From Candidatus Latescibacterota bacterium (GTDB taxonomy: Bacteria; Latescibacterota; UBA2968; UBA8231): 64,000 nt of DNA. Numbering within the stretch: the first letter of the stretch is position 1; every line of letters begins with the position of its first letter. The stretch covers positions 768,001 to 832,000 of the forward strand of contig OZ242318.1 of assembly GCA_965208105.1 (NCBI GenBank), written 5' to 3'. This document shows, piece after piece, positions 37,140 to 51,843 of the stretch. Both the position numbers and the translations under genes were made by a program. The notes under the pieces are model-generated. The model ran no database searches, was not told the origin of the DNA, and saw only the letters and a list, made by a program, of their open reading frames with translations.

Positions 37140-37295
37140 CGAACCTTCCCCTCATTTCAACATTGATCTGCCCGGACATCAACGATACATTATTGGTTGA
37201 AAGCGATCAACCGGAAATCGCTGCGGATTTCCGGCCCGGGTCGCAAGCCCTCACCGGGCAGGACCTACCCTGATGCCTGCAACCTGGCTACGCTC

Positions 37296-40256
37296 ATGAG
37301 CCGGCGATCGACCTGCGGATACTGGTGTCTTGCGCTGATCGCGTGGGCAACCGCTGGCGCAGAGGAGTCGGCGCGCCCTGCGCTTTCCGAGGTTGTAGGG
37401 GGACGGCCGTTTCTCCTGTACGAGCGGCAGCCCTACCGCAACTTCGCCTTCGACAACTTCACCCAGTACCCGGATCACACCTGGGGCGCGCGCGCCGTCG
37501 GCGGGCAGATCGGGGTCAGCATGGGCCTCGACCGGCAGCAGGACCTGTACGACCCCATGGGAAACTACCTGGCGCAGGGCTTCGACCTGTTCTCCTGGAT
37601 CGAACGGCGGCAGCCGGAACAGCTCTACGGCAGCGAGCTCTTCAAGGACTGGTCCGCCTGGCAGCACGTGTTCACCAACGTGGTGGTGGGGCGCGACGGC
37701 TACGGCGGCTGGGGCTACAGCGCCTTCGTGGGCGACGGCCTGATGGCGCGCTTCACCCCGCTGACCCTGTCGAAGACGGATCTGAACGGACTGCGCCTGG
37801 ACCTGTCCCTTCCCCGGGTGAAGGTCACCGCCCTGGGCTCGCGCATCGCGCGGCCCAACAGGGAGTCGTACCTTTTCTCCGAAAACGTCGGCGAAATCGA
37901 AGTCAACCACTCCACCTTGCTCCTCGGCACCCGCATACTGGCCGATCTGGGGCATCTGCGCCTGGGCCTGAACGGGGTGAACCTGCACCCCTACGACAGC
38001 ACTCGGCCGGGCAATAGTATGAAGGGCCGCCTGCGCAATCATCCGCGTGCGAACCTTGCCCAGCCCCTCTACCAGTGGCTTCTGGTGCGCATAGCGGACG
38101 ACGCTCCGGAGGATGGCCGGGGCGGAGCCGTGGTCCAGGATGTCCGGCTGATCCTCAACGGCCGGGGGCGGCCCGACCTTCAGCCCCGGGTGGTGCGCCA
38201 TCGGGCGGCCACGCCGTCCCAAGTGGGCCGCACGCTCTCCTCGGGCGACTTTCTTCCCGTGTTCTACCAGACCATCTCCGGTCCCGGCGATTATTACCGG
38301 GAAAGCGAGATACCGCTCTACGCCGACTATCTCTACCTGCTGGAGCATACCGGGGGCGCGGACGTGGCCAAGGCAACCCATTTGCCGGGATTGCTGGAGA
38401 ATTTTTCCCTGGAAAACACCGGGACCATCCTGCGCGCCGACGGGGACGAACAACTGATCTACCTTTTCGATATCAGCCGGGAACCCCACGTCGAGTCGCT
38501 GGAAGTGGAGGCGGTCCTGGGCAACGACTACCGGGTGGAGTGGGCAGGCGTCTACCTGACCCCCGGCAACGAGAGCGCCGGCAATCTCGAGCAGAGATAC
38601 AGCAGTACCTTCTTTCGCCCCGCCCTGCGCGCCCGCGGAAGCGTGAAGGACGGGTCGAATCTAAGGCGAGTGCGCTTCAAGGTGGGCGAAAACACCGCCA
38701 TCTTCACCTACGGCGCGGACCTGAATCTGCAGCTCACCGGGCTGGAAGTTAGCGGCGAGTACGCGCGCTCGACCCTCTACCGGCGCTATCCCGCCCATCT
38801 GGAAGGAGATCCCCTTTTCGATTCGAGCCCGCGATTTACCCATCGTGGATCGGCCTGGTTCGTCAATGCCCTCCACTGGTTCGGGCATGGCCGGGTGGGT
38901 GCGGAGTACTTCTCCATGAATCCGGACTTCACAACCCGGATGGAGACCTATCTGCCCAGGGATTTCGGCTATCGATCAAGCCGCGGCTACAGCCCTCATG
39001 CGGGGCTGGCCAACTCCACCATCATCTGGCGCCTGGTGCAGGACAACGAGGACGGGGACCGCTACCCCGACATCCTTCTGGGCAATGTCCTCGGCAGCCC
39101 GCAGGCGGGAGCGAGAGACCTGGACGGGGTCTTCCTGGGGCAGGACGAGGACAACGACGGCATCGTTGACACGGACCGCAACTTCAACGGCATCCCCGAC
39201 TACGACGAGACCTTCATGATGTACCGGGTGGAGCCCAACGAGTACGTCTACGGGCTCGACCGCAACCACAACGACGAGCCCGACCAGCGCGAGGACGACT
39301 GGGTCGCCGACTATCCCTACGATCCGGACCAGCGCGGCTTCCATCTCTTCGGTCAGGTGGACCTGAGCAGGCACTGGTCCCTTGGTGCGGGACGTTTCGC
39401 GGTCAGGGAGCTGGCCGGCAGCGGGCGCAACCGCTCCACCTATGCGCTCCTTAGCTACCAGAGAGAGGCGGTGGCACGGCCGCAGCGCCTCCTGTTCGAG
39501 AATTACTTCCGCCGGGTCGAGGACGACATCCCCGATGAGTTCAACCAGTTCAGCAGAACCGTCCAGTTGGTCAGGATTAATGAATATTCCAGCGGTTTCT
39601 CAGGTGTCGTGCAGGAAGTCGCCGGCGGACTCCAGCGCCACCCGGACCAGCTCTTCTACCAGGACAGCTACGTAAACGAGACCTACCTCGAGGGTGAGCT
39701 CAACCCCTGGTCGACCCTGCGTCTGGTGCAGAAGCTGCGGCTGCGGCTCAACTGGCAGCAGAAGGGCCAACTGGCCAATGACCGCTTCCAGCGCGGGAGG
39801 CGGCTTGACTTCTGGGCGGTGACCAGCCGGGCGGACTACACCTGGCGCTGGGGCAAGCTGAGGGCAGTTCCCCAGTTCAAGTTCCTGCTCCTGCGACTGG
39901 CCGACCAGGATACCGACGTGGTCCTGCGCTCCGAGTACAGGGTGATTCCAATTCTCAAGCTGAGATATGCGCTGATGAGCCGGACCGTGCTGCAGGCCGG
40001 GGTCCAGGGCTGGGGGCCGCTGCCCTACCGGCTCGAAGACCACATCCGCCAGCGCGAGAGTCTCGAGCTGCGCACCGCGGTATTCACCCTGACCAACCGC
40101 TCGCGCTACTTCGGCTATGACATGCACACCATCATCGGCCTGAGGCGGGAAGAGCTGGACCTGGACAATCGGTTTCAGCGCTTCAGGAATTTCGACGGGT
40201 GGACGTTCTTCGTGCGCAACCTGGTGGGCTTCACCGAGTTCGGACAGTTGTTCTGA
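37296..40256 (+). CDS. Large exported hypothetical protein (~990 aa) with Ca-binding-like DxDxDG motifs
   Basis: Signal peptide; DNEDGDRYPD, DEDNDGIVD, DRNFNGIPD, DRNHNDEPD; beta-strand-like C-terminus ending in F. Confidence 0.8.
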   Translation: MSRRSTCGYWCLALIAWATAGAEESARPALSEVVGGRPFLLYERQPYRNFAFDNFTQYPDHTWGARAVGGQIGVSMGLDRQQDLYDPMGNYLAQGFDLFSWIERRQPEQLYGSELFKDWSAWQHVFTNVVVGRDGYGGWGYSAFVGDGLMARFTPLTLSKTDLNGLRLDLSLPRVKVTALGSRIARPNRESYLFSENVGEIEVNHSTLLLGTRILADLGHLRLGLNGVNLHPYDSTRPGNSMKGRLRNHPRANLAQPLYQWLLVRIADDAPEDGRGGAVVQDVRLILNGRGRPDLQPRVVRHRAATPSQVGRTLSSGDFLPVFYQTISGPGDYYRESEIPLYADYLYLLEHTGGADVAKATHLPGLLENFSLENTGTILRADGDEQLIYLFDISREPHVESLEVEAVLGNDYRVEWAGVYLTPGNESAGNLEQRYSSTFFRPALRARGSVKDGSNLRRVRFKVGENTAIFTYGADLNLQLTGLEVSGEYARSTLYRRYPAHLEGDPLFDSSPRFTHRGSAWFVNALHWFGHGRVGAEYFSMNPDFTTRMETYLPRDFGYRSSRGYSPHAGLANSTIIWRLVQDNEDGDRYPDILLGNVLGSPQAGARDLDGVFLGQDEDNDGIVDTDRNFNGIPDYDETFMMYRVEPNEYVYGLDRNHNDEPDQREDDWVADYPYDPDQRGFHLFGQVDLSRHWSLGAGRFAVRELAGSGRNRSTYALLSYQREAVARPQRLLFENYFRRVEDDIPDEFNQFSRTVQLVRINEYSSGFSGVVQEVAGGLQRHPDQLFYQDSYVNETYLEGELNPWSTLRLVQKLRLRLNWQQKGQLANDRFQRGRRLDFWAVTSRADYTWRWGKLRAVPQFKFLLLRLADQDTDVVLRSEYRVIPILKLRYALMSRTVLQAGVQGWGPLPYRLEDHIRQRESLELRTAVFTLTNRSRYFGYDMHTIIGLRREELDLDNRFQRFRNFDGWTFFVRNLVGFTEFGQLF

Positions 40257-41086: not shown

Positions 41087-43006
41087 TCAACTCTCCGGCA
41101 GCAAGTTGTACTTCTTCACCTTGCGGTGCAGGGTCGTGCGGTCGATGTTCAGCACCCGTGCGGCCCGGGTGATGTTGCTTCGTGAGAATTCGAGGGCGCG
41201 GACAATGGCCTGCCGCTCGGCTTCCTGCATCGAGAGGGGGTGATGGTCAGCGGCCTCGGGGCCGGTTGGAGGTGGAACCACCGCGGAGAGTTGGGGAGGA
41301 AGGCTGATTACCTGCAGGCGGTCGGTGGTCTCCAGCAACACGGCGCGTTCAATGGCGTTTCTCAGCTCGCGCACGTTTCCCGGCCAGTCGTAGGCCAGCA
41401 TTCTCTGCAGCGCCGCCGGGGAGATCCCGCGTATGTCTTCCCCGGAGCGATCGGCGTGTTCTTTCATAAAGTGTGCCGCCAACAAAGGGATGTCCTCACG
41501 GTGCTCTCTGAGCGGCGGTATGTCGAGGGGAAAGGCAGCCAGGCGGTAGAACAGGTCTGCGCGGAATCCGCCTTCATTCACCACGGTTTGCAGGTCCCGG
41601 TTGGTGGCCGCGATAACGCGGATGTCGATGGGAATCGTGGAGGTTCCACCCACCCGCTGGAGCTCCCGCTCTTCCAGGACACGCAGCAACTTGGCCTGCA
41701 GGGCCAGGGGCATGTCGCCGATTTCGTCGAGCAGAACGGTTCCTCCCTGGGCGCGCTCGAACTGCCCGATGCGCCGCGCCGACGCCCCCGTAAACGCCCC
41801 GCGTTCATGTCCGAACAGCTCGCTCTCGATCAGCGACTCGGGAATGGCGGCGCAATTGACCCCGATGAAGGGAGCCGCCTTCCTGCGGCTGTTATAGTGA
41901 ATCAGCCTGGCGACGAGCTCTTTGCCGGTTCCGCTTTCGCCTTGGATCAGCACCGTGATGTCGCTTTCGGCCGCCCGCCGCATCAAGGCGTAGAGGTCCT
42001 GCATGTTTTTGCTTTTGCCCACCATGCCGTCCATGGCGTAGGTCTTTCCCAGTTCCTCGCGCAAGCGCAGGACCTCGGATTTCATGCGCTCGCCCTCGAC
42101 CTCCCTGGACACGTCGCGGTAGATGACGACATGCCCCGTGGTGCCTTGCCGGCTGTCGTTTACGGGCGCGGTCGAGCGGAAGAACAGCCGGGGATTTGAG
42201 GTCCCGGCGGTGCTGACCTCCTCCTCCAGGTCGCCCGCGCCGTCGAGAAACAGCGTGCGCCACGATTCCGGAAGGACCGGCGGGCGGAGGCGGGCACAGA
42301 GGAGGGACCGGAGTTCACCGGGAGGCATCTGCCTGAGGTCGCCTTCCCCGGCATCGAGAAGTTCCTCGTATCCCCGGTTGGCCACCTGCAGGCGTCCATC
42401 GGCGCCGAACATGCCGATGGCATCTCCCGTGGCGTCGAGCACTGCCTGGAGTCTCCGGTTGCTGGCCTCGAGCCGCCGGTTGCTGGTTTCCAGGTCCCGC
42501 CTGTTGCGTGCCAGGTCCTGCTCGATGTTCCACTTCCCGGTGAGCGAAGCCGTGATCTGCTGGATCTCCTCCCGGGAAAATGGTTTTCGGATGAACAGCA
42601 GCTTGTGAAGAAACTCCATGTCGTCGACGATCTCGGGCAGGGTCCTGTCGGAGTACGCGGTCATGATCACGATTTCCATATCCGGCTCGAACTTGCGGAT
42701 CCTGCGCACTGTTTCTATTCCGTCAGCTCCCGGCGGCATCCTGACGTCCACATAGGCCATCGCAAAGGGACGCTTCGATTTCCTACCCGCCTTGACCATC
42801 TCCAGGGCTTCATCCCCGCTCACAGCATGGGCGAGCTCGAACTGCGGGAGAAATTGTTTTCCCGTATCCGGGACGAAGGTCGATGCCAGATCGTCGGTTG
42901 CCCTCCCTGTGGACCCGCTGGACAGCATCTCCTCGAAGTCGTTGTGGATTTCCTCCTGGTCGTCGACGACCAGGACTCGGTAGTTCCAGGATTGGTTCGA
43001 TTTCAT
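41087..43006 (-). CDS. sigma54-dependent response regulator (REC-PAS-AAA+-Fis HTH)
   Basis: VLVVDD...DVRMP; [25 protein letters not shown]-terminal HTH. Confidence 0.95.
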
Positions 43007-43123: not shown

Positions 43124-44401
43124 TCAGGGGAGGACGGAATCGAGCCGCAACTCGACGCGCATGGTGGTGCCCGTTCCGCGGCCGTTGCTCAATGGTTGGA
43201 TTTTTCCCCCGGAGCCAGTGACGAAGTTGGCCGCCGAATGGAGGCCCAGCCCGCTCCCCTCCCGCTTGGTCGTATAGCCTGCCCCGAAGATCGCTTTGAG
43301 GTTTTTCCGGTCGATGCCGATACCGTTGTCCTCTACCTCGAGGACGAGAAAATCCTGCCGCACATAGGCTCTGATCTCGATGCGGGGCTGTCCCCTGAGC
43401 CCGCCCGACCGGTTCAGCTCCTCGATGGCTTCCATCGCATTCTTGAGCAGGTTGACCAGCATCTGATTGAACTGGGATTCCTGAACGCGAATCTCTTTGG
43501 GAGCGCCTGCGCAGTCCACATGCGTCTGTATCCCTTTGCTGGCAAACGAGTCCCGCACGATCCTCATGGCGCCGGAGATGGCCTGGCGCAGGTTGACGTC
43601 CTTGCTGGTCATGGCCTTGCTGTCAAAGCCGCGTTGCGCGCGCACGATGTCCACGATGTGGCTCGTCTGGCTGTTGACGCGTTCGACCGTGCGGATCAGT
43701 TCCTGATTCTGCTCGACGAAGTCGCCGGCAAGGGCAAGCAGAAACGGCCGGACCTGCCGGCCTTGCGCATCATGCTGGACGTACTCACCCCAGTCCTCCG
43801 CGTGACCTTCGGCGGTCTCCGACAAGGCCGACAGGCGTTCGATCAGCGGATTCTTCTCCAACTCCTCTTTCAGGGTCCCGACGCCGATGGCCACGCTGGT
43901 GATGGCGTTGCCGATGTTGTGCAGGATGGTGTCCATGACCTCCAGGCGGCCTTGTGCGAAAGCCTGGGCAAGGGCCTCGTCCGCCCGCACCTTCTCCGTT
44001 ACGTCGCGGAATACGGTGACCCCGCCGCGGACGGCCCCGGGCATCCTGATGGGCCTGCCGCTGGCACTGATATGGACCCCCTCGGGCTTGGCCGCGGTGC
44101 GGATGAACATCTCCATCTCGTCGGTGGCCTCCCCGCGCATCGCCCGCACCAGCGGCAGTTCCTCGGTTGGAACGGGCGTGGCCTGGTCGGCGTAGAATAT
44201 GCTGTATTCCTCCGTCCATCGGTCGGGGAGGGCATCCAGAGTCGAGCCGATTATGCGTTCCGCACTGGGGTTGAAGGTGAGGCCGCCATTCTCGTCGGCG
44301 ACTATCACACCGTCGCTGATGCTGTCGAAAATGGCCTGCATGAGTTGGATCTGGTGCTGAAGCTGGTCGACCGTGCTATTCAACTGAGCTCTGTTTCCCA
44401 T
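43124..44401 (-). CDS. PAS sensor histidine kinase
   Basis: ILHNIGNAI H-box, NLLKNA, DNGIGI, GSGLGLH. Confidence 0.92.
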   Translation of the reverse strand: MGNRAQLNSTVDQLQHQIQLMQAIFDSISDGVIVADENGGLTFNPSAERIIGSTLDALPDRWTEEYSIFYADQATPVPTEELPLVRAMRGEATDEMEMFIRTAAKPEGVHISASGRPIRMPGAVRGGVTVFRDVTEKVRADEALAQAFAQGRLEVMDTILHNIGNAITSVAIGVGTLKEELEKNPLIERLSALSETAEGHAEDWGEYVQHDAQGRQVRPFLLALAGDFVEQNQELIRTVERVNSQTSHIVDIVRAQRGFDSKAMTSKDVNLRQAISGAMRIVRDSFASKGIQTHVDCAGAPKEIRVQESQFNQMLVNLLKNAMEAIEELNRSGGLRGQPRIEIRAYVRQDFLVLEVEDNGIGIDRKNLKAIFGAGYTTKREGSGLGLHSAANFVTGSGGKIQPLSNGRGTGTTMRVELRLDSVLP

Positions 44402-44432: not shown

Positions 44433-45953
44433 TCAACCGCCGCGATATTCGTCCCGCGCCTGCACCATCGCCGCGAGCTTGGCCTCGGCGACGCGGGCGG
44501 ATGCCACCGGGTTGTCGGCGAAGGTGGCGAAGCCGCAGTCGGGTGTAAGCAGGACGCGCTCGGCCCCGAATAGATCGGCGGCGCGGGAGATGCTCCGGCG
44601 TATGTCGTCAACCTGCTCCACCGCGTCCAGCTTCTGGTTGACCACGCCTATGCCGATGCGCTTGTCGCCGGGGATGTCCCGCAGCACCTCCGCTTCGCCG
44701 GCGCGCTCGGTGCAGAGCTCGAGGAAGAGAGTGCCCACCTGCGCGCGCATCAGGACCTCCAGGAGAGGCCGGTAGTCTCCCGCCAGGGCGGCGGACTCGT
44801 CCCGGGTCCAGTTGCCCCGGCAGATGTGCAGTCCCAGGCGCTCCGGCGGCAGGCCCCGGACCACCTCGTTGAGAAGACCGGAGGCGAAGTCCAGCTCCGG
44901 AGCTGTCTCCAGCTTCTCGCCCAGGGCGCCGCACATGAAGGTGCGGTTCTGGCTGGAGGCGCCGAAGACCACTTCGCTCAACACCGGCTCGTCGAACTGC
45001 ACCAGGGAAACCCCTGCGGCAAGGAGAAAATGGAGCTCCTCGCGCAACACCCGGACCACGTCCCTGGAGAGGTCCTCGCGGGTGTCGTAGGGGCGCTCGG
45101 TGAGGCAGTCCATCCACATGGTGCGGGTGAGCAGGTAGGGACCGGGGAGGGCGACCTTGAGGGGAAGGTCGGCGCAGGAGCTGGCGAAATCAAACTCGTG
45201 GACGGTGAGGGGCCTGCTGCGCCCGAGGCTGGCGTAGACCACTGGATGCCGCACCTCCGCCGCCGGAACGTCCAGCGCGCGGAGCTCGCGCTCGAACTCC
45301 TCCGGATGGTCCACCATGGCGGTGAGGTCGCTGAGGGGGATGAGCTGGCAGTTGTCAAGCAACCCCCCGACGAAGCTGGCGTAGCTGTCGCGGCGCTGCT
45401 CGCCGTCGGTGAGCACGTCGGCCCCCGCCCGGACCTGGGCGTCGACACAGAGGCGCACCGCGTCGTCGGCGGTGGCCTGGAACTCCTCCTCCTCAAGCCT
45501 GCCCTCGAGGCGGTCGTGGATCGCCTGCAGCATCCAGCGCGGGCGGGGCCAGCTGCCGATGCCCATGACCGACAGCGGAGCGACCCCGGGAGCAGGGGCA
45601 GGGGCCGGCAGGGTCTCGGGAATGGAGACCTCCACCTTCAACTGCTGGCCGATGGCGGCGGTAGCCGGCCCGGCCTGCGACGGCGCCCGCTCCACCAGCG
45701 GGCCCTTGCTCACCAGGTAGCTGCGCTGCCCGCCTTCCCTGGTCCACGACACCAGCTCGTTCCTGGTCAGGCGGCACCAGGCCGGCAGCTCCACCTCGAC
45801 GGTGGAATCGGTGGACAGGATCTCCAGCAGACCTCCCTGGTTCATCGGGTCGATGTGCCTGCGGATGAGAAGCAACAGCCCCCCGCCGCAGTCCAGGTCG
45901 CCGCCGTCGAAGCTGACGTCCGGCTGGTATGGGTGTCGTTCCACCGGTTCCAT
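44433..45953 (-). CDS. TusA-domain / cobalamin-independent methionine synthase core (MetE C-terminal-type) fusion
   Basis: N-terminal DGGDLDCGGGLLL...LPAWCR; IGSWPRP, TDGEQRR, QFDEP, HICRGN, LFLEL, PDCGF Zn ligands. Confidence 0.9.
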   Translation of the reverse strand: MEPVERHPYQPDVSFDGGDLDCGGGLLLLIRRHIDPMNQGGLLEILSTDSTVEVELPAWCRLTRNELVSWTREGGQRSYLVSKGPLVERAPSQAGPATAAIGQQLKVEVSIPETLPAPAPAPGVAPLSVMGIGSWPRPRWMLQAIHDRLEGRLEEEEFQATADDAVRLCVDAQVRAGADVLTDGEQRRDSYASFVGGLLDNCQLIPLSDLTAMVDHPEEFERELRALDVPAAEVRHPVVYASLGRSRPLTVHEFDFASSCADLPLKVALPGPYLLTRTMWMDCLTERPYDTREDLSRDVVRVLREELHFLLAAGVSLVQFDEPVLSEVVFGASSQNRTFMCGALGEKLETAPELDFASGLLNEVVRGLPPERLGLHICRGNWTRDESAALAGDYRPLLEVLMRAQVGTLFLELCTERAGEAEVLRDIPGDKRIGIGVVNQKLDAVEQVDDIRRSISRAADLFGAERVLLTPDCGFATFADNPVASARVAEAKLAAMVQARDEYRGG

Positions 45954-45986
45954 GCTGCCCCCTTCCATGGCAAGAGGATCACGACC

Positions 45987-46349
45987 CTAGTAGGTGATGC
46001 ACGGGGTGCCGTCGGACAGAAACTCGACCAGCACCGCTCCTCCTACGATGGTCGCGCCGTCCACCAGGTTGCCTTCGTCCAGGCCGCGCTTTTTGAAGCA
46101 GGGCGCACAGACCAGGATGGTCCCCCCGCCTTCGGAGAAATTGCCCATCAGCTCCTTCAGGGGCATAAATCCCTCTTCGTGCACGTCGTCGGCGTATCCC
46201 CTCTGGGAGAGGCGCACGCCCTCGGTGCTCAGAAAGACGACGGTCTCCTGCTCGGAACCGAGGGCTGCGTTGGCGACGACGAAGGCCACGGTCGCCTTGT
46301 CGGTATCGTCTTTTGCACAGGTGAGACTGACGCAGAATTTTCCCGCCAT
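45987..46349 (-). CDS. DsrE family protein
   Basis: KATVAFVVANAA, VFLSTEGV, VCAPCFKKR. Confidence 0.9.
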   Translation of the reverse strand: MAGKFCVSLTCAKDDTDKATVAFVVANAALGSEQETVVFLSTEGVRLSQRGYADDVHEEGFMPLKELMGNFSEGGGTILVCAPCFKKRGLDEGNLVDGATIVGGAVLVEFLSDGTPCITY

Positions 46350-46388
46350 TGCTGTTTTCCTCCTGAGTTTGGGTTGTAGGGGCGTTCT

Positions 46389-46652
46389 TCAGCCGCCCTT
46401 GGCTTCGATCCAGTAGTGGGGATGCTCGGCGCGGAGCAGGCGGCGGCCGGTCAGCCGGCACCACGCCGGCAGGTCCACCGGCGCGCCCAGGTCCTGGGAG
46501 GTGAGCTTGAGCACTTCTCCGGGGTCGAGCTTCTGCATCCTCAGCCGCAGCAGGATGATGACCTCTCCGCAGCCCATGTGGCCGGCGTCCCACTCGTCGG
46601 CGGGGACCGGCAGGTCGGCTTCGGGAGTGCCGTGCTGGTCCGGTTCAGACAT
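46389..46652 (-). CDS. TusA/SirA-family sulfur carrier
   Basis: WDAGHMGCGE...PGEVLKLTSQDLGAPVDLPAWC. Confidence 0.88.
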   Translation of the reverse strand: MSEPDQHGTPEADLPVPADEWDAGHMGCGEVIILLRLRMQKLDPGEVLKLTSQDLGAPVDLPAWCRLTGRRLLRAEHPHYWIEAKGG

Positions 46653-47030
46653 CTGCCTGCCTCAGGCTCCTCCTGCGGTGACGCGCAGGCTCGGGAATGA
46701 ATGCGATGATCATGTACATGGCCGCTGCCAGACTGCTGCTGTCGGCCGCCCCGGATCGTGAGGTCGCGGCCTGGAGATTGCGGGCGGCACCACCCTTGAT
46801 TCGGTGATGACCGGCCAGGGGTAAATAAATGCCCTTTTCCGGTCCCACTGTCAAGACGCCGGGTTCAACGGAGCATCGGTGGTGCCCTGGCGAAACCTGG
46901 ACAATGCTGCAGCACCGCCCTGGCCACGGTCCGGTCGCCCCAGGCACCTGTGGGGGCAACCCTGGAGGCAGACCTCCATAGATAAATGGTACTACCAGGT
47001 ACCGAAACGGCTGCTGTCGCGGCGGAGACC

Positions 47031-49541
47031 CTATTTCAACAGCAACATTCTCCGCTCCCGCACAGATTCCCCGTCTGCCAACCGGTAGAAGTAGAGGCCG
47101 TTGGCTGCCTGCCGCCCGTGCTCGTCGGTTCCATCCCAGGTCACCCGGTAGTGCCCCGGGTCCTGGTGCTCCTCTACCAGGACCCTGACCCGTTGTCCGG
47201 TCACGTTGTAGACGGCCAACCGTATTGCGGCCGGTGCGGGCAATGTGTAGCGGATGGTGGTGGCCGAGTTGAAAGGATTGGGATAGTTCTGCTGCAGCGC
47301 AAAGCGCAGCGGCCGGGCAGATTCCCCCTCCTCGGTGACCGCGGTCACCGACCCGGACTCTTCGAACTGGAACGAATACAGCTTGGCTGCGCGCATCTCG
47401 AACTTGAGCCGCACCGTCTCTCCCACCAGAGGCGAAAGGTCGGGGTTGCCGCCCCAGGTGACCACCTTCCTTATGCGGTTGCGGCCGATGGGGTCGCAGT
47501 CGTCCAGACCGAATCCCCTGTAGGGTTCGCCTTGCTCATCGAGGACGGCCACCCTGGCCGTGCCCGCTGCCGAGGCGTTGATATTCAGCACCAGCCTGTC
47601 CCCCGAGAAAGTAATCGGGGGCGTGGTGAATCCGCCCCCCCCGTAGGGCGCGTCGGCGGACATGAACCCGTCCAGGCGCTGAACCACGCGGCGGATGGCT
47701 CCTCGAGGCGGGTCCCCAGGCTCGCTCCTGCCGCCGACAGAGTGAGTGTAGTTGAAACCGCCGTAGTACTGGTAGATCTCGTTCCCGGACCTCAGCATGC
47801 CCACGCCCATATACATCGTGCCGCCGTCGCCGGTCCCGTCCAGTCCCAGAGCGCCATACGGTCTCCGGTCCGCGCGCTTCCAGCGGATGCCGTCGCGTGA
47901 GGTGGCCATCTGGATCTCCACCAGGTCGGAATCCACGGTGCGGGGATCGTCCGGGGATGCGAATCCCCAGGGCGTTTTTATCCAGACCATGACGGTGAAG
48001 TTCCGCCCGTTCAGGTCCAGCTCAGGCCCGCGGCCGCAGTCCACGTAGCCGTTGCCCCCCAGCTCCAGTGCGCCCCCGAGACCCTGCGACCAGCGAAAAC
48101 TTCCCTTCAAGGCAGCGGTATTGCCGTGTCCCGAGAAATCCTCCGCCACCTCTCCCTCGCCCTCGTCGAAGGTCCAGTATGCGGCCAGGGCCTCGTCCGA
48201 CCCCACTACTCCAGCTTCCTCCCCCCGCAGCAGCGCCGCGGTCTGCCGGTAGTAGGCCTCGACCTCCGCAGCAGACAGGCCCCGGTGATAGATCCTCACT
48301 TCGTCGATGGTTCCGCTGAAGCCGTTACGGAAGGTGCCTCCTCTGTTGGCGGCCGCTCCAATGTAGAGGCGGTTGGTGCCGGAATAGGGGGTGGCGGAGG
48401 ATCCGGGCTCCTTGCGGACGTGGTACACGGCTTCGGCGCCGTCGATGTACAAACGGTAGGACGCTCCATCATAGGTGGCGGCGAGATGGTACCAGCGCGA
48501 GGGCTGGAGGGAAGCCTCGGACATGAGGCTGGCCTGGTCCCTGGCCTTGTTGGCGGTCCAGAAGGCGGTGCTGACCCGCCCGTGCTCGTTGTGCAGCATC
48601 AGGCGGTACTCGGGGAAGTTCCTGCCGCCCAGCTCCTTGGTCAGGATGGCCGCGGTGGGCGTGCCGGAATAATGCCTGAAGAGGCTGGGAAAGGCGAGGT
48701 AGGCTTCCTGGGCCCAGGGGTATTTCACAACGGAGGGGTTGTAGAGGTCCGAGTCGGGCGGGTCGAGCCCGTCGGGAGCGAGCACGGTGGGAAGCTCGCC
48801 GCCGCGGATATAGCCGTAGGTGCGTCCTTCCCCTGGAGGTCCCGAGCTGCCGCGCGGCGGAGTATGGGGCCAGGGCTGGGTAATGTCATCCATCTCCACC
48901 CGGGCCACCGAGCGATTGTTGCTGGTCCAGGCGCGCAGGAAGGCCACGTACTTGCCGATCCGGTCGTCCCAGAATCCCTGGTTCTGGGTGTCGGCATTGA
49001 AGGGCAGCAACATTCCCCGGCACTCCCAGTGGATGCCGTCCGGCGAAGTCCCCACGGTCACGCCGCCGCCGCCGCAGCCGCGGCCGACGAACTTGAAGCG
49101 CTCTTCGGGCCTGCCGTGCTCGTCCAGGAACACCGCACCTACCGCGTTCTTGAGGACGATGTTGTTTTCCATCGAGCCTTCGAACTCGACCACGTTGCAC
49201 GGCGGGCGGCGCCAGTGCACCCCGTCGTCGGACTCGGCGTAGCATACGTTGCGGCTCTCGAACGACGACGCGTCGTACCACATCAAATACTTCCCTCCGT
49301 ACTCCACCACCGAGCTGTAGGCCCCGACTCTCTTGCTCTCCCAGGGTCTTTCCGGCCGCAGTACCGCTTCTTCCTTGCGCGGAGGATTGACCACCAGGGT
49401 TATGGCGTCGTTTTCGGCAAAGAAACGGTCGTCGATGAACAGCTGTTTCCTCGAACCTACGTCGATGGCCTCATCGGAGAAGGCGTCGAAGCCGGTGAAC
49501 AAACAGCCGGTGACCAGCGCCGCTATCATCGCGTTCTTCAC
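47031..49541 (-). CDS. Secreted propeller glycosidase-like protein with LamG insert and FlgD/T9SS-like C-terminal domain
   Basis: KQLFIDD, YAESDDGVHW, SRDGIRW, RLDGF; LamG motifs; QNYPNPFN...YFYRL. Confidence 0.85.
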   Translation of the reverse strand: MKNAMIAALVTGCLFTGFDAFSDEAIDVGSRKQLFIDDRFFAENDAITLVVNPPRKEEAVLRPERPWESKRVGAYSSVVEYGGKYLMWYDASSFESRNVCYAESDDGVHWRRPPCNVVEFEGSMENNIVLKNAVGAVFLDEHGRPEERFKFVGRGCGGGGVTVGTSPDGIHWECRGMLLPFNADTQNQGFWDDRIGKYVAFLRAWTSNNRSVARVEMDDITQPWPHTPPRGSSGPPGEGRTYGYIRGGELPTVLAPDGLDPPDSDLYNPSVVKYPWAQEAYLAFPSLFRHYSGTPTAAILTKELGGRNFPEYRLMLHNEHGRVSTAFWTANKARDQASLMSEASLQPSRWYHLAATYDGASYRLYIDGAEAVYHVRKEPGSSATPYSGTNRLYIGAAANRGGTFRNGFSGTIDEVRIYHRGLSAAEVEAYYRQTAALLRGEEAGVVGSDEALAAYWTFDEGEGEVAEDFSGHGNTAALKGSFRWSQGLGGALELGGNGYVDCGRGPELDLNGRNFTVMVWIKTPWGFASPDDPRTVDSDLVEIQMATSRDGIRWKRADRRPYGALGLDGTGDGGTMYMGVGMLRSGNEIYQYYGGFNYTHSVGGRSEPGDPPRGAIRRVVQRLDGFMSADAPYGGGGFTTPPITFSGDRLVLNINASAAGTARVAVLDEQGEPYRGFGLDDCDPIGRNRIRKVVTWGGNPDLSPLVGETVRLKFEMRAAKLYSFQFEESGSVTAVTEEGESARPLRFALQQNYPNPFNSATTIRYTLPAPAAIRLAVYNVTGQRVRVLVEEHQDPGHYRVTWDGTDEHGRQAANGLYFYRLADGESVRERRMLLLK

Positions 49542-49605
49542 GGTCTTGACTCCTTGTAGTTCCGGTCCTTCCCGCCCGACTCCCGCCCGCGGCCAACCCT
49601 CCGGC

Positions 49606-51843
49606 TCATTCGTCCTCCACCTCCAGCACAAGCACCTCGTGGAGCTCCACCCTGGGCACGAGGACCGCATCCGAATCGATCTCCAGGTTTCGGCCCTGCA
49701 GCGGCAACCGCGCCGACTTCAGCTCGAGCCCGGTGAATCGCACCACGATGTCGCGCAAGGGAACCAGCTCGCGGGGTGCGTGGAAGGCGCCGTCGTCCCG
49801 ATGGTTGTCGAAGTCCTCTTCGTTGTAGATCCGCCACGGGATCAACGGATTGGGGTTGTTGACCAGGTGCACCATCAGCTCCCCCGAAGGCCTCACCGCA
49901 GCGGTGATCTCCAGCGCTTCCGGCGCCTCGATCTCGAAGGGTGCGGTGGTGCGGCGAACCAGGTGGACGACGAAGCTCTTCAGCATGGCATACGGGCTTT
50001 CCATGAAGGCACTGCCCACGTCTGCGGCGAGGTAATAGGCCCTGCCCCTGCCGAAGCGGTTCACAACCACCGCCGGCTCGCCGCTGTCGAAGGGCCGCTG
50101 CGGGTGAAAGCGGTCCAGCGGATTCACATCTTCCAGGTTGGACCGCGTGCACAATATCTCCACTCCCCCGCGGGTGCGAATCTCCGCTTCCCTGCCGTAC
50201 ATGCAGATGATGTCGCCCATCTCCTTCCTGAGCCGTTCCTCCTGCGGCACCAGGGCGATCGGTCCCTCCTCCCGCTTCTGCCCGTCCTCGCCCGTCCTCT
50301 CGCGGGTGCCGGCGTATTCGACCCCCAGCACCTTCTCGAGACCGAACCTCCCGCGATCGTACCCAAACTCGTCCAGCAGGGAGGTCTGGTAAGTTGCTAT
50401 CAGGGTGCCGCCTCCGTCGACGTATCCGGCTACCGCCTCGCACTGGGCGTCCGACAGGCAGGCGCTGTTGGAGAGAAAGAGGAGACCGTACTGCCCGAGG
50501 TGCCCTGGAACGATATGTTCGTCGAAGGCCAGGTCGAGGGGAAGATGGGAGCGGTTGAGCATCTCGTAGACGCCGTGGACGTAGCGCTGATGGAGCTGGC
50601 GCCATCCCGCGACGGTCGGCGGTCCCCGGTGGATCTCCCCGGGATTGAAGTCCCGGTTCCGGGTCGAGTAGTGCAGGGCGAGGTACTTGAGACTCTCCCC
50701 TTCCAGGTAGTCCTCCCTTTGCCTCATTCCGGCGAACACCCTCCTGTGGGCGTCGGCGTTGACGAAGATGTTGCCCCCCTTGATGACGCGGCCGGGGAGG
50801 GGCTCGCCGCAGGAGGCGCCGCCGTGAGCCATGGCCACCGCAGCGAAGACCGCCGCTTCGCGCCCCCGTGGGTACGGCGCCAGACCGAACCCCTTCAGCG
50901 GTTCCGAGGGAACGCGGAATAGCCCGAACGGGGTCCCCGAGGCGCGCAGCACCTTGGCCACGAATCCGGGCTCGCGCAGATAGCGGTGTGGAGCGGGAAA
51001 GGTTTCCACGAAGGAATGGCCGCCCACTTCGTGCAGGCGGAGGGAGGCGATGGGATGGCCCTGGGACCATTCCGCCGTGGGCCAGTAATAGGTGTTCAGG
51101 TCCAGGATGGCGTCGGGGTAGCGGGAACGCACCGAGCGAAAAAAATGATGGAGGAACTCGATGAGCTTGTCGTAGCGCCAGTTGACGAAGTGGCGGAAGG
51201 CCCTGGAGTCGAAGTCCACCTTCCGGGGGATATCGAAGCCCGTGTCCTCGTTGAACTGCCGGGCGCAGAACCGGCAGCAGCAGGACGGGACATAGGGCGA
51301 GTTGTCGTGGGAGCCCCAGTTGACGTCGTCGAAGTAGAACCCGTCGATGTCCAGGTTGTCCATGAAATCGCTCAGGCACTCGGGCAGCCAGTCGCGGAAG
51401 GGCGAATTGAAGCAGAACCAGCCCTGGTTCTCGGGAATCGGCCGGCCGTCGTCGACAAACTGCATGAGCCACTCCGGATGCAGGTCCCGCAGCGGTTTGG
51501 AGAAGTTGATCGGGTAGTAGGACAGCACGATGATGCCGCGCCGGTGACAGAGCTCGATGAAGCGGGGGTTCAGGTCCTGGTCCAGGTGGGGGTGAGGCGC
51601 GAAGATGCGCGAGGGGAAACGAGGCGTGCCGCGATTGAATGCGCCGGAGACGATGGCGACCTCGAAGCCGGCTGCGCTGATGGCGTCCACGTACTCCTCG
51701 GGCGTGGGACAATCCAACGGCTCCCCGGCGGGGGGAGGAGGATAGTGGGCCTCGATGCGGCATACCCGTTTTTCGTAGGGCTTTTCCGCCAGGCGCTGCG
51801 CGGTGCTTCCCACCCTTCTCAGCGGCGGAGGTCCGGAGTTCAT
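49606..51843 (-). CDS. Glycoside hydrolase-like TIM barrel with beta-galactosidase trimerization (GATase-like) domain
   Basis: HPEW...CFNSPF, IDGFYFD, CCCRFC, LSNSACLSD, GGTLIATYQTSL. Confidence 0.82.
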   Translation of the reverse strand: MNSGPPPLRRVGSTAQRLAEKPYEKRVCRIEAHYPPPPAGEPLDCPTPEEYVDAISAAGFEVAIVSGAFNRGTPRFPSRIFAPHPHLDQDLNPRFIELCHRRGIIVLSYYPINFSKPLRDLHPEWLMQFVDDGRPIPENQGWFCFNSPFRDWLPECLSDFMDNLDIDGFYFDDVNWGSHDNSPYVPSCCCRFCARQFNEDTGFDIPRKVDFDSRAFRHFVNWRYDKLIEFLHHFFRSVRSRYPDAILDLNTYYWPTAEWSQGHPIASLRLHEVGGHSFVETFPAPHRYLREPGFVAKVLRASGTPFGLFRVPSEPLKGFGLAPYPRGREAAVFAAVAMAHGGASCGEPLPGRVIKGGNIFVNADAHRRVFAGMRQREDYLEGESLKYLALHYSTRNRDFNPGEIHRGPPTVAGWRQLHQRYVHGVYEMLNRSHLPLDLAFDEHIVPGHLGQYGLLFLSNSACLSDAQCEAVAGYVDGGGTLIATYQTSLLDEFGYDRGRFGLEKVLGVEYAGTRERTGEDGQKREEGPIALVPQEERLRKEMGDIICMYGREAEIRTRGGVEILCTRSNLEDVNPLDRFHPQRPFDSGEPAVVVNRFGRGRAYYLAADVGSAFMESPYAMLKSFVVHLVRRTTAPFEIEAPEALEITAAVRPSGELMVHLVNNPNPLIPWRIYNEEDFDNHRDDGAFHAPRELVPLRDIVVRFTGLELKSARLPLQGRNLEIDSDAVLVPRVELHEVLVLEVEDE

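Follow-up and report, generated by a model that had tools for sequence, protein, structure and literature searches.

The 64,000-nt stretch of Candidatus Latescibacterota bacterium DNA analysed here (GenBank assembly GCA_965208105.1, contig OZ242318.1, positions 768,001 to 832,000; hereafter the window) encodes, at 44433..46652 on the minus strand, three co-directional genes in the order tusA-like, dsrE-like and TusA::MetE-like fusion. This arrangement is beyond chance, since it recurs in 80 loci of other genomes with cysteines conserved at 96–100%, and it occurs almost only in selenium-using bacteria. We propose, with a probability of roughly 0.4, that the three genes may constitute one functional unit feeding a chalcogen into a MetE-fold Zn enzyme, and that a cysteine relay may supply sulfur or selenium, bound to its carriers, to a substrate of the homocysteine type held at the Zn site. 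We infer which way the atom moves, which chalcogen and which substrate are involved, and each chemical step. We favour this relay because of the intact active site, the set of carriers, cysteines restricted to the fused proteins, the lack of a methyl-donor partner and the association with selD. The module consists of the following genes and fusion segments:

46389..46652, minus strand: free TusA-like carrier, 87 amino acids (PF01206 match)
45987..46349, minus strand: DsrE-like protein, 120 amino acids (PF02635 match)
44433..45968, minus strand: TusA::single-barrel MetE-like fusion, 511 amino acids (PF01717 match plus N-terminal PF01206 match)
45699..45926, minus strand: N-terminal TusA-like domain of the fusion, approximately residues 15–90, with Cys27 and Cys65 (assigned by a PF01206 match below cut-off and the fold model)
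45573..45698, minus strand: Pro/Ala-rich linker of the fusion, approximately residues 91–132 (from sequence and model)
44433..45572, minus strand: MetE-fold Zn barrel of the fusion, residues 133–511 plus stop (PF01717 and alignment to 3RPD)

The open reading frames (ORFs) lie at exactly the coordinates at which a preceding inspection of the letters alone (the sequence-only reading) had placed the tusA, dsrE and tusA::metE-core genes. The motifs it had listed are all in the translations: GCGE in the free TusA, LDCGG in the fused TusA domain, LPAWCRLT in both, CAPC in the DsrE-like protein, and HIC...E...PDCG together with the Pro/Ala linker in the fusion. Intergenic gaps amount to 39 nt (tusA–dsrE) and 18 nt (dsrE–fusion), and GGAGG-type ribosome sites are visible for two of the three genes. 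In comparisons to Pfam, the free TusA-like protein scores 30.0 bits with PF01206 (cut-off 28.6), the DsrE-like protein 50.6 bits with PF02635 (cut-off 22.7) and the fusion barrel 95.6 bits with Meth_synt_2 (PF01717, cut-off 21). The N-terminus of the fusion matches PF01206 with 26.2 bits (E 7e-6), just below the cut-off of 28.6. Since its relatives begin at about residue 6, translation of the fusion probably starts at the second methionine.

The carriers retain the cysteines expected for chalcogen transfer within an altered sequence context: the active-Cys CPxP motif of the TusA family is replaced by CGE in the free protein and by CGG in the fused domain. In the free TusA, Cys28 (in GCGE) and Cys65 (in LPAWCRLT) align with Cys19 and Cys56 of E. 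coli TusA, respectively, and both are conserved in 100% of 60 sequences. In 81 fused sequences, Cys27 is conserved at 98% and Cys65 at 96%, so that the TusA-domain cysteine, on whose conservation the sequence-only reading had staked its proposal, is retained in both carriers. In the DsrE-like proteins of related loci, Cys81 and Cys84 of the CAPC motif are conserved at 100% and Cys6 at 99%; the Cys of 3MC3, a Sulfolobus DsrE-like structure, is the counterpart of Cys81 in the alignment. The window locus has one dsrE-like gene, which is single-copy in the window genome by tblastn, and not the three-paralogue DsrEFH/TusBCD arrangement. No NCBIfam model gave a match to the DsrE-like protein at E 0.01.

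The same folds and active cysteines are found in the TusA/DsrE relays that serve sulfur oxidation and tRNA thiolation, such as the Metallosphaera DsrE3A–TusA pair (PMC4175335), and in these relays sulfur passes from Cys to Cys as persulfide or thiosulfonate. No sHdr, Dsr or Tus partners were detected near the loci tested by Pfam or NCBIfam; unlike in those relays, the acceptor of the module would be a MetE-fold enzyme. We know of no TusA/DsrE relay with such an acceptor. Complex prediction for the fusion and the DsrE-like protein gave scores of 0.01 and 0.04 against a mark of 0.32, values that count neither for nor against binding.

The barrel retains the complete active site of its family. 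The Zn ligands H381, C383, E417 and C478 are invariant in a 33-row alignment of the fused family, and across the 81 fused sequences C383 and C478 are conserved at 100% and 98%, respectively. The homocysteine-binding residues S139, E190 and D326 are invariant, as are H381 and E417, in alignments of 33 and 36 rows, and in 3RPD the three residues have their counterparts in the motifs GS, DGEQ and FDEP. The corresponding Ser, Glu and Asp positions bind the carboxylate and amino groups of the substrate, as stated by Price et al. 2021 (PMC7857596). The intact triad therefore makes it probable, at the level of sequence, that the substrate of the fusion is still a homocysteine-type amino acid.

What sets the fused family apart is a group of three additional cysteines. 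C207, C288 and C346 are conserved at 100% in the 81 fused sequences, whereas among 14 unfused full-length relatives C288 occurs in none, C207 in one (P0266) and C346 in one (P0134); these three positions thus travel with the carrier fusion. The unfused relatives keep the Ser/Glu/Asp triad in 14 of 14 cases and all four Zn ligands in 12 of 14 (not in P0179 and P0204). C288 lies three residues past a conserved Trp that follows a PGP motif, and C346 about 20 residues past FDEP. In MetE this Trp presumably stacks on the pterin, and C288 and C346 may accordingly be positioned at the face where MetE binds its methyl donor.

An AlphaFold2 model of the fusion based on a 50-row alignment (mean predicted local distance difference test, pLDDT, 85.4; predicted template modelling score, pTM, 0.83) contains an alpha/beta domain of TusA type that is joined through a disordered linker to a TIM-type barrel. 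The fused TusA domain adopts the order beta-alpha-beta-alpha-beta-beta with pLDDT 77–92, and linker residues 98–109 are disordered in the model with pLDDT <50. The loop 338–348, which carries C346, also falls below pLDDT 50 and is therefore probably mobile. A Foldseek search with the model placed 3RPD (MesD) on top (E 2e-21, TM score 0.81 on the target), with MetE C-terminal barrels and 1YPX in the next places; 3RPD is also the best solved relative by sequence (E 1e-20).

The module is widespread. A word-index search scored 8000 candidates and returned at least 4738 homologous proteins at E 0.001 or better; the 120 top matches listed are all 73–94% identical and mostly ~506 amino acids long. 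In an exhaustive search of representatives at 50% identity, 3687 sequences matched with E values of at most 0.001, 182 of them of at most 1e-30, and these matches include both fused clusters (46–60% identical) and full-length unfused barrels (27–41%). Among contigs from one genome per species, a relative is encoded in 176 stretches; the neighbourhood counts use the 80 loci retained: 36 from Dehalococcoidia/Chloroflexi, 19 from Binatia (one labelled Thermodesulfobacteriota), 8 from Latescibacterota, 7 from Methylomirabilota/Rokubacteria, 5 from Planctomycetes, 3 from Verrucomicrobia, and one each from Eisenbacteria and a betaproteobacterium. Of the 80 loci, 78 have dsrE upstream of the fusion; the exceptions are L054, at a contig edge, and L065, in Binatia. 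The free tusA gene is upstream in 59 of 80 and is absent from 19/19 Binatia and from two contig-edge loci. The gene-neighbourhood survey that had been suggested as a check thus finds the module genes together across eight lineages, and clustering of the ORFs in the 80 loci revealed no further gene family common to multiple lineages. The betaproteobacterial locus (L075) has ~2.1 kb between dsrE and the fusion (L075:3897-5998), with ORFs of 631 and 179 amino acids that lack a Pfam match. Module sequences are 60–90% identical across phyla, and of the sampled genomes, 201 in each class, 19 Planctomycetia and 23 Dehalococcoidia contain the module.

We computed a quick tree of the sequences gathered here, which carries Shimodaira–Hasegawa-like approximate likelihood ratio test (SH-aLRT) support only and was built without reference MesA–D or epoxyalkane:CoM transferase sequences. 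In this tree the fused family forms a clade (support 100) inside a wider clade (support 99) that also holds unfused Dehalococcoidia and Latescibacterota sequences. The window protein and that of a same-genus relative group with Dehalococcoidia sequences and are separated from another Latescibacterota sequence; the window fusion is 78–91% identical to cross-phylum relatives (L001, L005, L020). This grouping suggests a recent horizontal transfer of the fusion between Dehalococcoidia and Latescibacterota, plausibly among sponge symbionts.

The genes beside the module and its unfused sisters differ by lineage. In Binatia, dsrE–fusion is divergent to metY (O-acetylhomoserine sulfhydrylase)–metX–metW and a gene of the nucleoside phosphorylase family in 18 of 19 loci; downstream lie genes for a Fur-family regulator (14/19) and ZnuA (7/19). 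In Methylomirabilota, an ATP-binding cassette (ABC) importer of PhnD/PhnE/PhnC type is directly upstream in 5 of 7 loci and translationally coupled to the module; in L011 the end of phnC overlaps the start of tusA. The binding protein of this importer passes the phosphate/phosphite/phosphonate subfamily model and scores 92.7 bits with the 'putative selenate' binding-protein model, below its threshold of 250. The unfused sister clade of the barrel is 39–44% identical (L083 = G002, L085 = G432, L084 = G107). In two Dehalococcoidia, a gene of the OsmC-related (seleno)protein type follows the unfused sister, and a two-domain rhodanese gene is next in one of them. In one Latescibacterota genome, a gene for a PhnD-family, Rv1680-type substrate-binding-protein (SBP)-like protein precedes the sister, and past a stretch with an unassigned plus-strand ORF lies a gene of the acyl-CoA-dehydrogenase fold of sulfur-acquisition-like type. 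Given the importer, metYXW, OsmC, rhodanese and SBP-like neighbours, the wider clade repeatedly adjoins chalcogen-handling genes. Two side observations concern the same loci: the PhnD-like gene of L011 is immediately preceded by a gene for an Ogt/Ada-type methylated-DNA-protein-cysteine methyltransferase (L011:2703-3359), probably by coincidence, and genes of the acyl-CoA-dehydrogenase fold are found 0.6–1.2 kb further from unfused sister genes.

The association with selenium emerges at the level of genomes. selD scores above cut-off in the window genome and in all five other module genomes first examined (6/6), and in five of these six selD carries an in-frame TGA, and is itself a selenoprotein there. 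Ten further module genomes, picked for other phyla (two of them Planctomycetes), gave selD in nine. We then compared genomes with and without the module within three groups by one-sided Fisher tests, whose p-values ignore kinship among related genomes and are thus overstated in significance:

Planctomycetia, 201 genomes: selD in 19/19 with the module and 80/182 without, p 5e-7
Dehalococcoidia, 201 genomes, fused form: selD in 23/23 and 132/178, p 0.002
Dehalococcoidia, fused plus sister-only: selD in 33/33 and 122/168, p 8e-5
Latescibacterota, 168 genomes, fused form: selD in 10/11 and 123/157, p 0.29

The two positive samples, Planctomycetia and Dehalococcoidia, belong to different phyla. Dehalococcoidia genomes with the unfused sister only carry selD in 10 of 10 cases, and among Latescibacterota with the fused or the sister form it is present in 12 of 13. 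The selD gene of the window genome itself (C1:3653826-3654752, locus L081) encodes a selenoprotein with one in-frame TGA, and in-frame TGA codons in selD are found in most of the sampled Latescibacterota and Dehalococcoidia.

A similar association is described for YedF, which, according to Lin et al. 2015 (PMC5322559), combines a SirA/TusA-like domain with a DsrE-like domain carrying CGXC and is strongly linked to selD. YedF and the module share the two folds, CxxC in the DsrE part and the strong co-occurrence with selD; the module differs in that the two folds are separate genes, that CGE/CGG stands in place of CPxP and that YedF has no MetE-like partner. Neither small protein matched the YedF model TIGR03527 at E 0.01, so that the two resemble a split YedF without matching its model. 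A test of complementarity between YedF and the module was uninformative, with YedF above cut-off in 0 of 201 Planctomycetia genomes. DsrE-like selenoproteins with UxxC (U, selenocysteine) are listed in a 2026 review.

These data can be combined into a conditional scheme. The free TusA and the DsrE-like CxxC protein would pick up sulfane sulfur or, more probably, selenium as Se(0)/Se(-II), which in some lineages could derive from an oxyanion taken up by the PhnCDE-type importer. The carriers would hold the chalcogen as Cys-persulfide or Cys-selenosulfide and pass it to Cys27 of the fused domain, which would swing on the Pro/Ala linker to the methyl-donor face of the barrel, lined by C288, C346 (on the mobile loop) and C207. 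There, a homocysteine-type amino acid would be held by the Ser/Glu/Asp triad with its chalcogen on Zn, and the Zn-activated nucleophile would make or break an S–S, S–Se or C–S/Se bond with the carried atom. Products could be, for example, homocysteine or selenohomocysteine from an activated homoserine, or homocysteine persulfide or selenopersulfide; the DsrE CxxC pair would reset the relay.

Several points weigh against this scheme. The case for the relay is built from sequence throughout, and the intact homocysteine and Zn site is equally expected of a plain methionine synthase. That the extra cysteines may lie near the donor face is deduced from their position in the sequence and from the presumed role of the Trp. 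The importer and metYXW contexts are each restricted to one lineage. None of the 80 loci has selD within 6 kb of the module, and the selD statistics are a genome-level correlation to which a shared habitat may contribute. In Latescibacterota the test is powerless because 133 of 168 genomes already carry selD. Two module genomes lack selD: a Pedosphaera metagenome-assembled genome (G175) and a Latescibacterota genome that is 98% complete and gave no selD match (G096). No in-frame TGA replaces any conserved cysteine in the 80 loci, and selenocysteine at these positions was rejected, as no in-frame stop aligned with any of them.

The alternative that survives best, which we regard as somewhat doubtful, is that the fusion represents a fifth 'core' family of B12- and folate-independent methionine synthases. 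It would then function like MesD and transfer a methyl group to homocysteine at Zn from an as yet unnamed donor, while TusA and DsrE would serve as a thiol–disulfide relay that keeps the oxidation-prone Zn site and the nearby cysteines reduced in aerobic or glutathione (GSH)-poor bacteria. The intact Zn ligands and homocysteine-binding residues fit this role, and the CxxC of DsrE-like proteins is regarded as a redox motif in the literature. The divergent metY–metX–metW cluster of Binatia is otherwise without the last step. The best solved relative is MesD (3RPD), which resembles the fusion in being a single MetE-type barrel without folate domain, with the same Zn ligands and Ser/Glu/Asp homocysteine site, in requiring one or more adjacent accessory protein genes, and in occurring in hosts that also have MetH. 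The fusion differs from MesD in that it is only ~22–27% identical to 3RPD, scores 98.1 bits against a cut-off of 313 with NF005085 (assumed here to be the MesD model), has TusA/DsrE instead of DUF1852 as partners, and adds the carrier domain and three invariant cysteines. For MesA, MesB and MesC the comparison consists of NCBIfam scores, all far below cut-off; the best NCBIfam methionine-synthase model is NF003317, with 154.5 against a cut-off of 406. With canonical MetE the fusion shares the fold, the HxC...E...C zinc site, the homocysteine residues and the conserved Trp after PGP; unlike MetE, it has a TusA domain as its N-terminus instead of the folate-binding barrel, and it reaches 64.2 bits against a cut-off of 929.95 with TIGR01371, matching positions 517–607 only.

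The distribution of other synthases was also considered in this context. MetE is absent from all six module genomes, that is, the window genome and five others, and full-length MetH is present in four of these five, which mirrors the way MesD accompanies other synthases. Among Planctomycetia, MetE occurs in 0 of 19 module genomes and 31 of 182 others (p 0.035); however, conditioned on selD the numbers become 0/19 versus 6/80 (p 0.27), and MetE is scarce in Latescibacterota anyway (2/168 genomes). The proposed complementarity between MetE and the module was therefore dropped. Further points speak against a methionine synthase: the selD link, the PhnCDE coupling and the use of a persulfide-carrier rather than a thioredoxin fold are left unexplained, MetX and MetA are missing from the window genome, and no methyl-donor partner is conserved nearby, with no corrinoid, MesX or folate-domain gene conserved beside the module among the neighbours tested. 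MesX (PF08908, DUF1852) had no match in the window genome, in a search that matched no control genome either. A methylated TusA cysteine as methyl donor was rejected on general chemical grounds, a thioether not being a methyl donor.

Riboswitches were searched as well. No Rfam family, including those of S-adenosylmethionine (SAM) and B12 riboswitches, reached its gathering score in the 64-kb window, ten related loci gave tRNAs only, and a permissive scan of the 700 nt upstream gave two chance-level matches; the absence of an upstream SAM riboswitch noted in the sequence-only reading is thereby borne out. Its proposal that the module may not serve ordinary methionine synthesis agrees with the missing folate barrel, the NCBIfam scores far below cut-off, the missing riboswitch and the fusion-only cysteines. 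Taken as a whole that reading stands in part: the conserved cysteine and the co-occurring genes hold, a role other than ordinary methionine synthesis is supported, and it had missed the homocysteine-binding residues, the tie to selD and the metYXW genes of Binatia. On the particular chemistry it had suggested, alkylation or methylation of the carried sulfur or repair of the Zn site, the data speak neither for nor against.

In the window genome, a single contig of 4.85 Mb with an estimated completeness of 93.9%, the methionine background is unusual. Neither canonical MetE nor full-length MetH is present; B12-, pterin- and homocysteine-binding pieces occur separately, and a split methionine synthase is possible. 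Neither MetX, MetW (by tblastn) nor MetA-type HTS was found in this genome. The organism may be a methionine auxotroph, or may combine a split synthase with an unusual route to homocysteine. It carries eight further single-barrel Meth_synt_2 genes (342–394 amino acids, 24–30% identical to the fusion barrel), all with the GS, DGE, DEP, HxC and PDCG motifs, which in the quick tree fall outside the fused clade in at least three separate clades. One of them lies at C1:765099-766127, ~1.9 kb before the window start, and the others at seven more sites. Because full-length MetH is present in four of the five other genomes, and the split pieces and paralogues in the window genome, the module cannot be claimed as the sole methionine route in any genome examined.

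Relating the module to published synthases, a MetE-fusion of Phaeocystis (Rao et al. 2024, PMC10861871) likewise joins a single MetE-type barrel to domains of carrier and redox types, and independence from B12 has been proposed for it; its partners are polyketide synthase/acyl carrier protein (PKS/ACP) and CzcO-type oxidoreductase domains, and the paper makes no mention of TusA. Neither TusA nor DsrE is mentioned in the core methionine synthase papers examined, i.e., Price 2021, Rao 2024 and a 2025 PNAS paper on glycine betaine. Full-text literature searches, which largely missed subscription journals, found no paper describing a TusA/DsrE/MetE-like module.

Within the chalcogen relay, a narrower version tied to SelD can be formulated, which we judge unlikely. 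The relay would take reduced selenium from an imported oxyanion and join it to a homocysteine-type amino acid at the Zn site, and the resulting selenohomocysteine or homocysteine selenopersulfide would give bacteria without a glutathione route a safe form in which to store selenium inside the cell or donate it to selenophosphate synthesis.

Still less probable, in our estimate, is the sulfur-only version of the relay, a homocysteine synthase independent of pyridoxal phosphate (PLP), in which a Zn-activated TusA persulfide would attack O-acetyl- or O-phospho-homoserine on the Ser/Glu/Asp triad, with the extra cysteines and the DsrE CxxC resolving the mixed disulfide. Zn-thiolate alkyl transfer is the chemistry class of the MetE-type family, the carrier is fused to the enzyme, and metX, which makes O-acetylhomoserine, is adjacent in Binatia. 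The HcyS/MetY system of Wolinella is reportedly a precedent for homocysteine synthesis that depends on a carrier protein. However, Binatia already hold metY next to the module, the window genome has neither MetX nor MetA to supply the acyl-homoserine, and the selD link is left unexplained.

A role of the small cysteine proteins as Zn chaperones of the enzyme, or as factors that insert the metal into it, rather than as chalcogen carriers, appears very improbable: it would accommodate the Fur-family regulator and ZnuA genes of the Binatia loci and the observation of Haft 2022 that relatives of the CxxC DsrE-like SaoD adjoin Zn ABC transporters and metallochaperones, but the Zn context is restricted to Binatia, the DsrE-like protein has no NCBIfam match at E 0.01, and the conserved cysteines are the known persulfide-carrying ones of TusA and DsrE.

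The different readings have different consequences. If the relay delivers sulfur or selenium, it would be the first TusA/DsrE relay to end in an amino-acid-binding Zn enzyme, and it could explain by what route SelD is supplied with selenium in bacteria that lack glutathione. If the fusion is a methionine synthase, it would constitute the fifth folate- and B12-independent family and would bear on predictions of B12 dependence in uncultured marine and soil bacteria.

Turning to expression, we located the following elements around the module:

46825..46854, minus strand: promoter-like block with TTGACA, an 18-nt spacer and an AT-rich hexamer (weak, from a two-sequence alignment with the same-genus relative)
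43124-44401, minus strand: PAS histidine kinase (by domains)
41087-43006, minus strand: sigma-54-dependent response regulator with its own PAS domain (by domains)

The promoter-like block lies ~170 nt upstream of tusA and was not called by a consensus scan. The intervening 5′ leader of ~170 nt (46655-46830, minus strand) is partly conserved with the same-genus relative and matched no Rfam family. A TGGC-N-TGC-like upstream site was dropped as a sigma-54 promoter, its spacing not being kept in that relative. Since the histidine kinase gene starts only 31 nt past the fusion, the transcription unit may be longer in this genus and reach the kinase. Close homologues of the kinase/regulator pair (77–80% identical) are directly downstream only in the same-genus locus L005, 1 of 80 loci, and L062 and L070 have only distant kinase or regulator homologues, 1.7–3.6 kb off; the pair is a lineage-specific neighbour outside the conserved module.

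Metagenome runs from sponges and marine samples contain the window stretch. In four metatranscriptome libraries (three studies), short contigs cover the three genes and span both junctions; their identity of 90–99% assigns them to relatives, in which they are consistent with co-transcription, with DNA carry-over as another possible source. The flanks of the module (37197-40256 and 47031-51843) encode a 1019-amino-acid protein with a weak match to the S-layer SlpA beta-barrel, a secreted protein with LamG, FlgD-Ig and Por-tail domains, and a GHL6-type glycoside hydrolase, and are typical polysaccharide-degrading gene content unrelated to the module.

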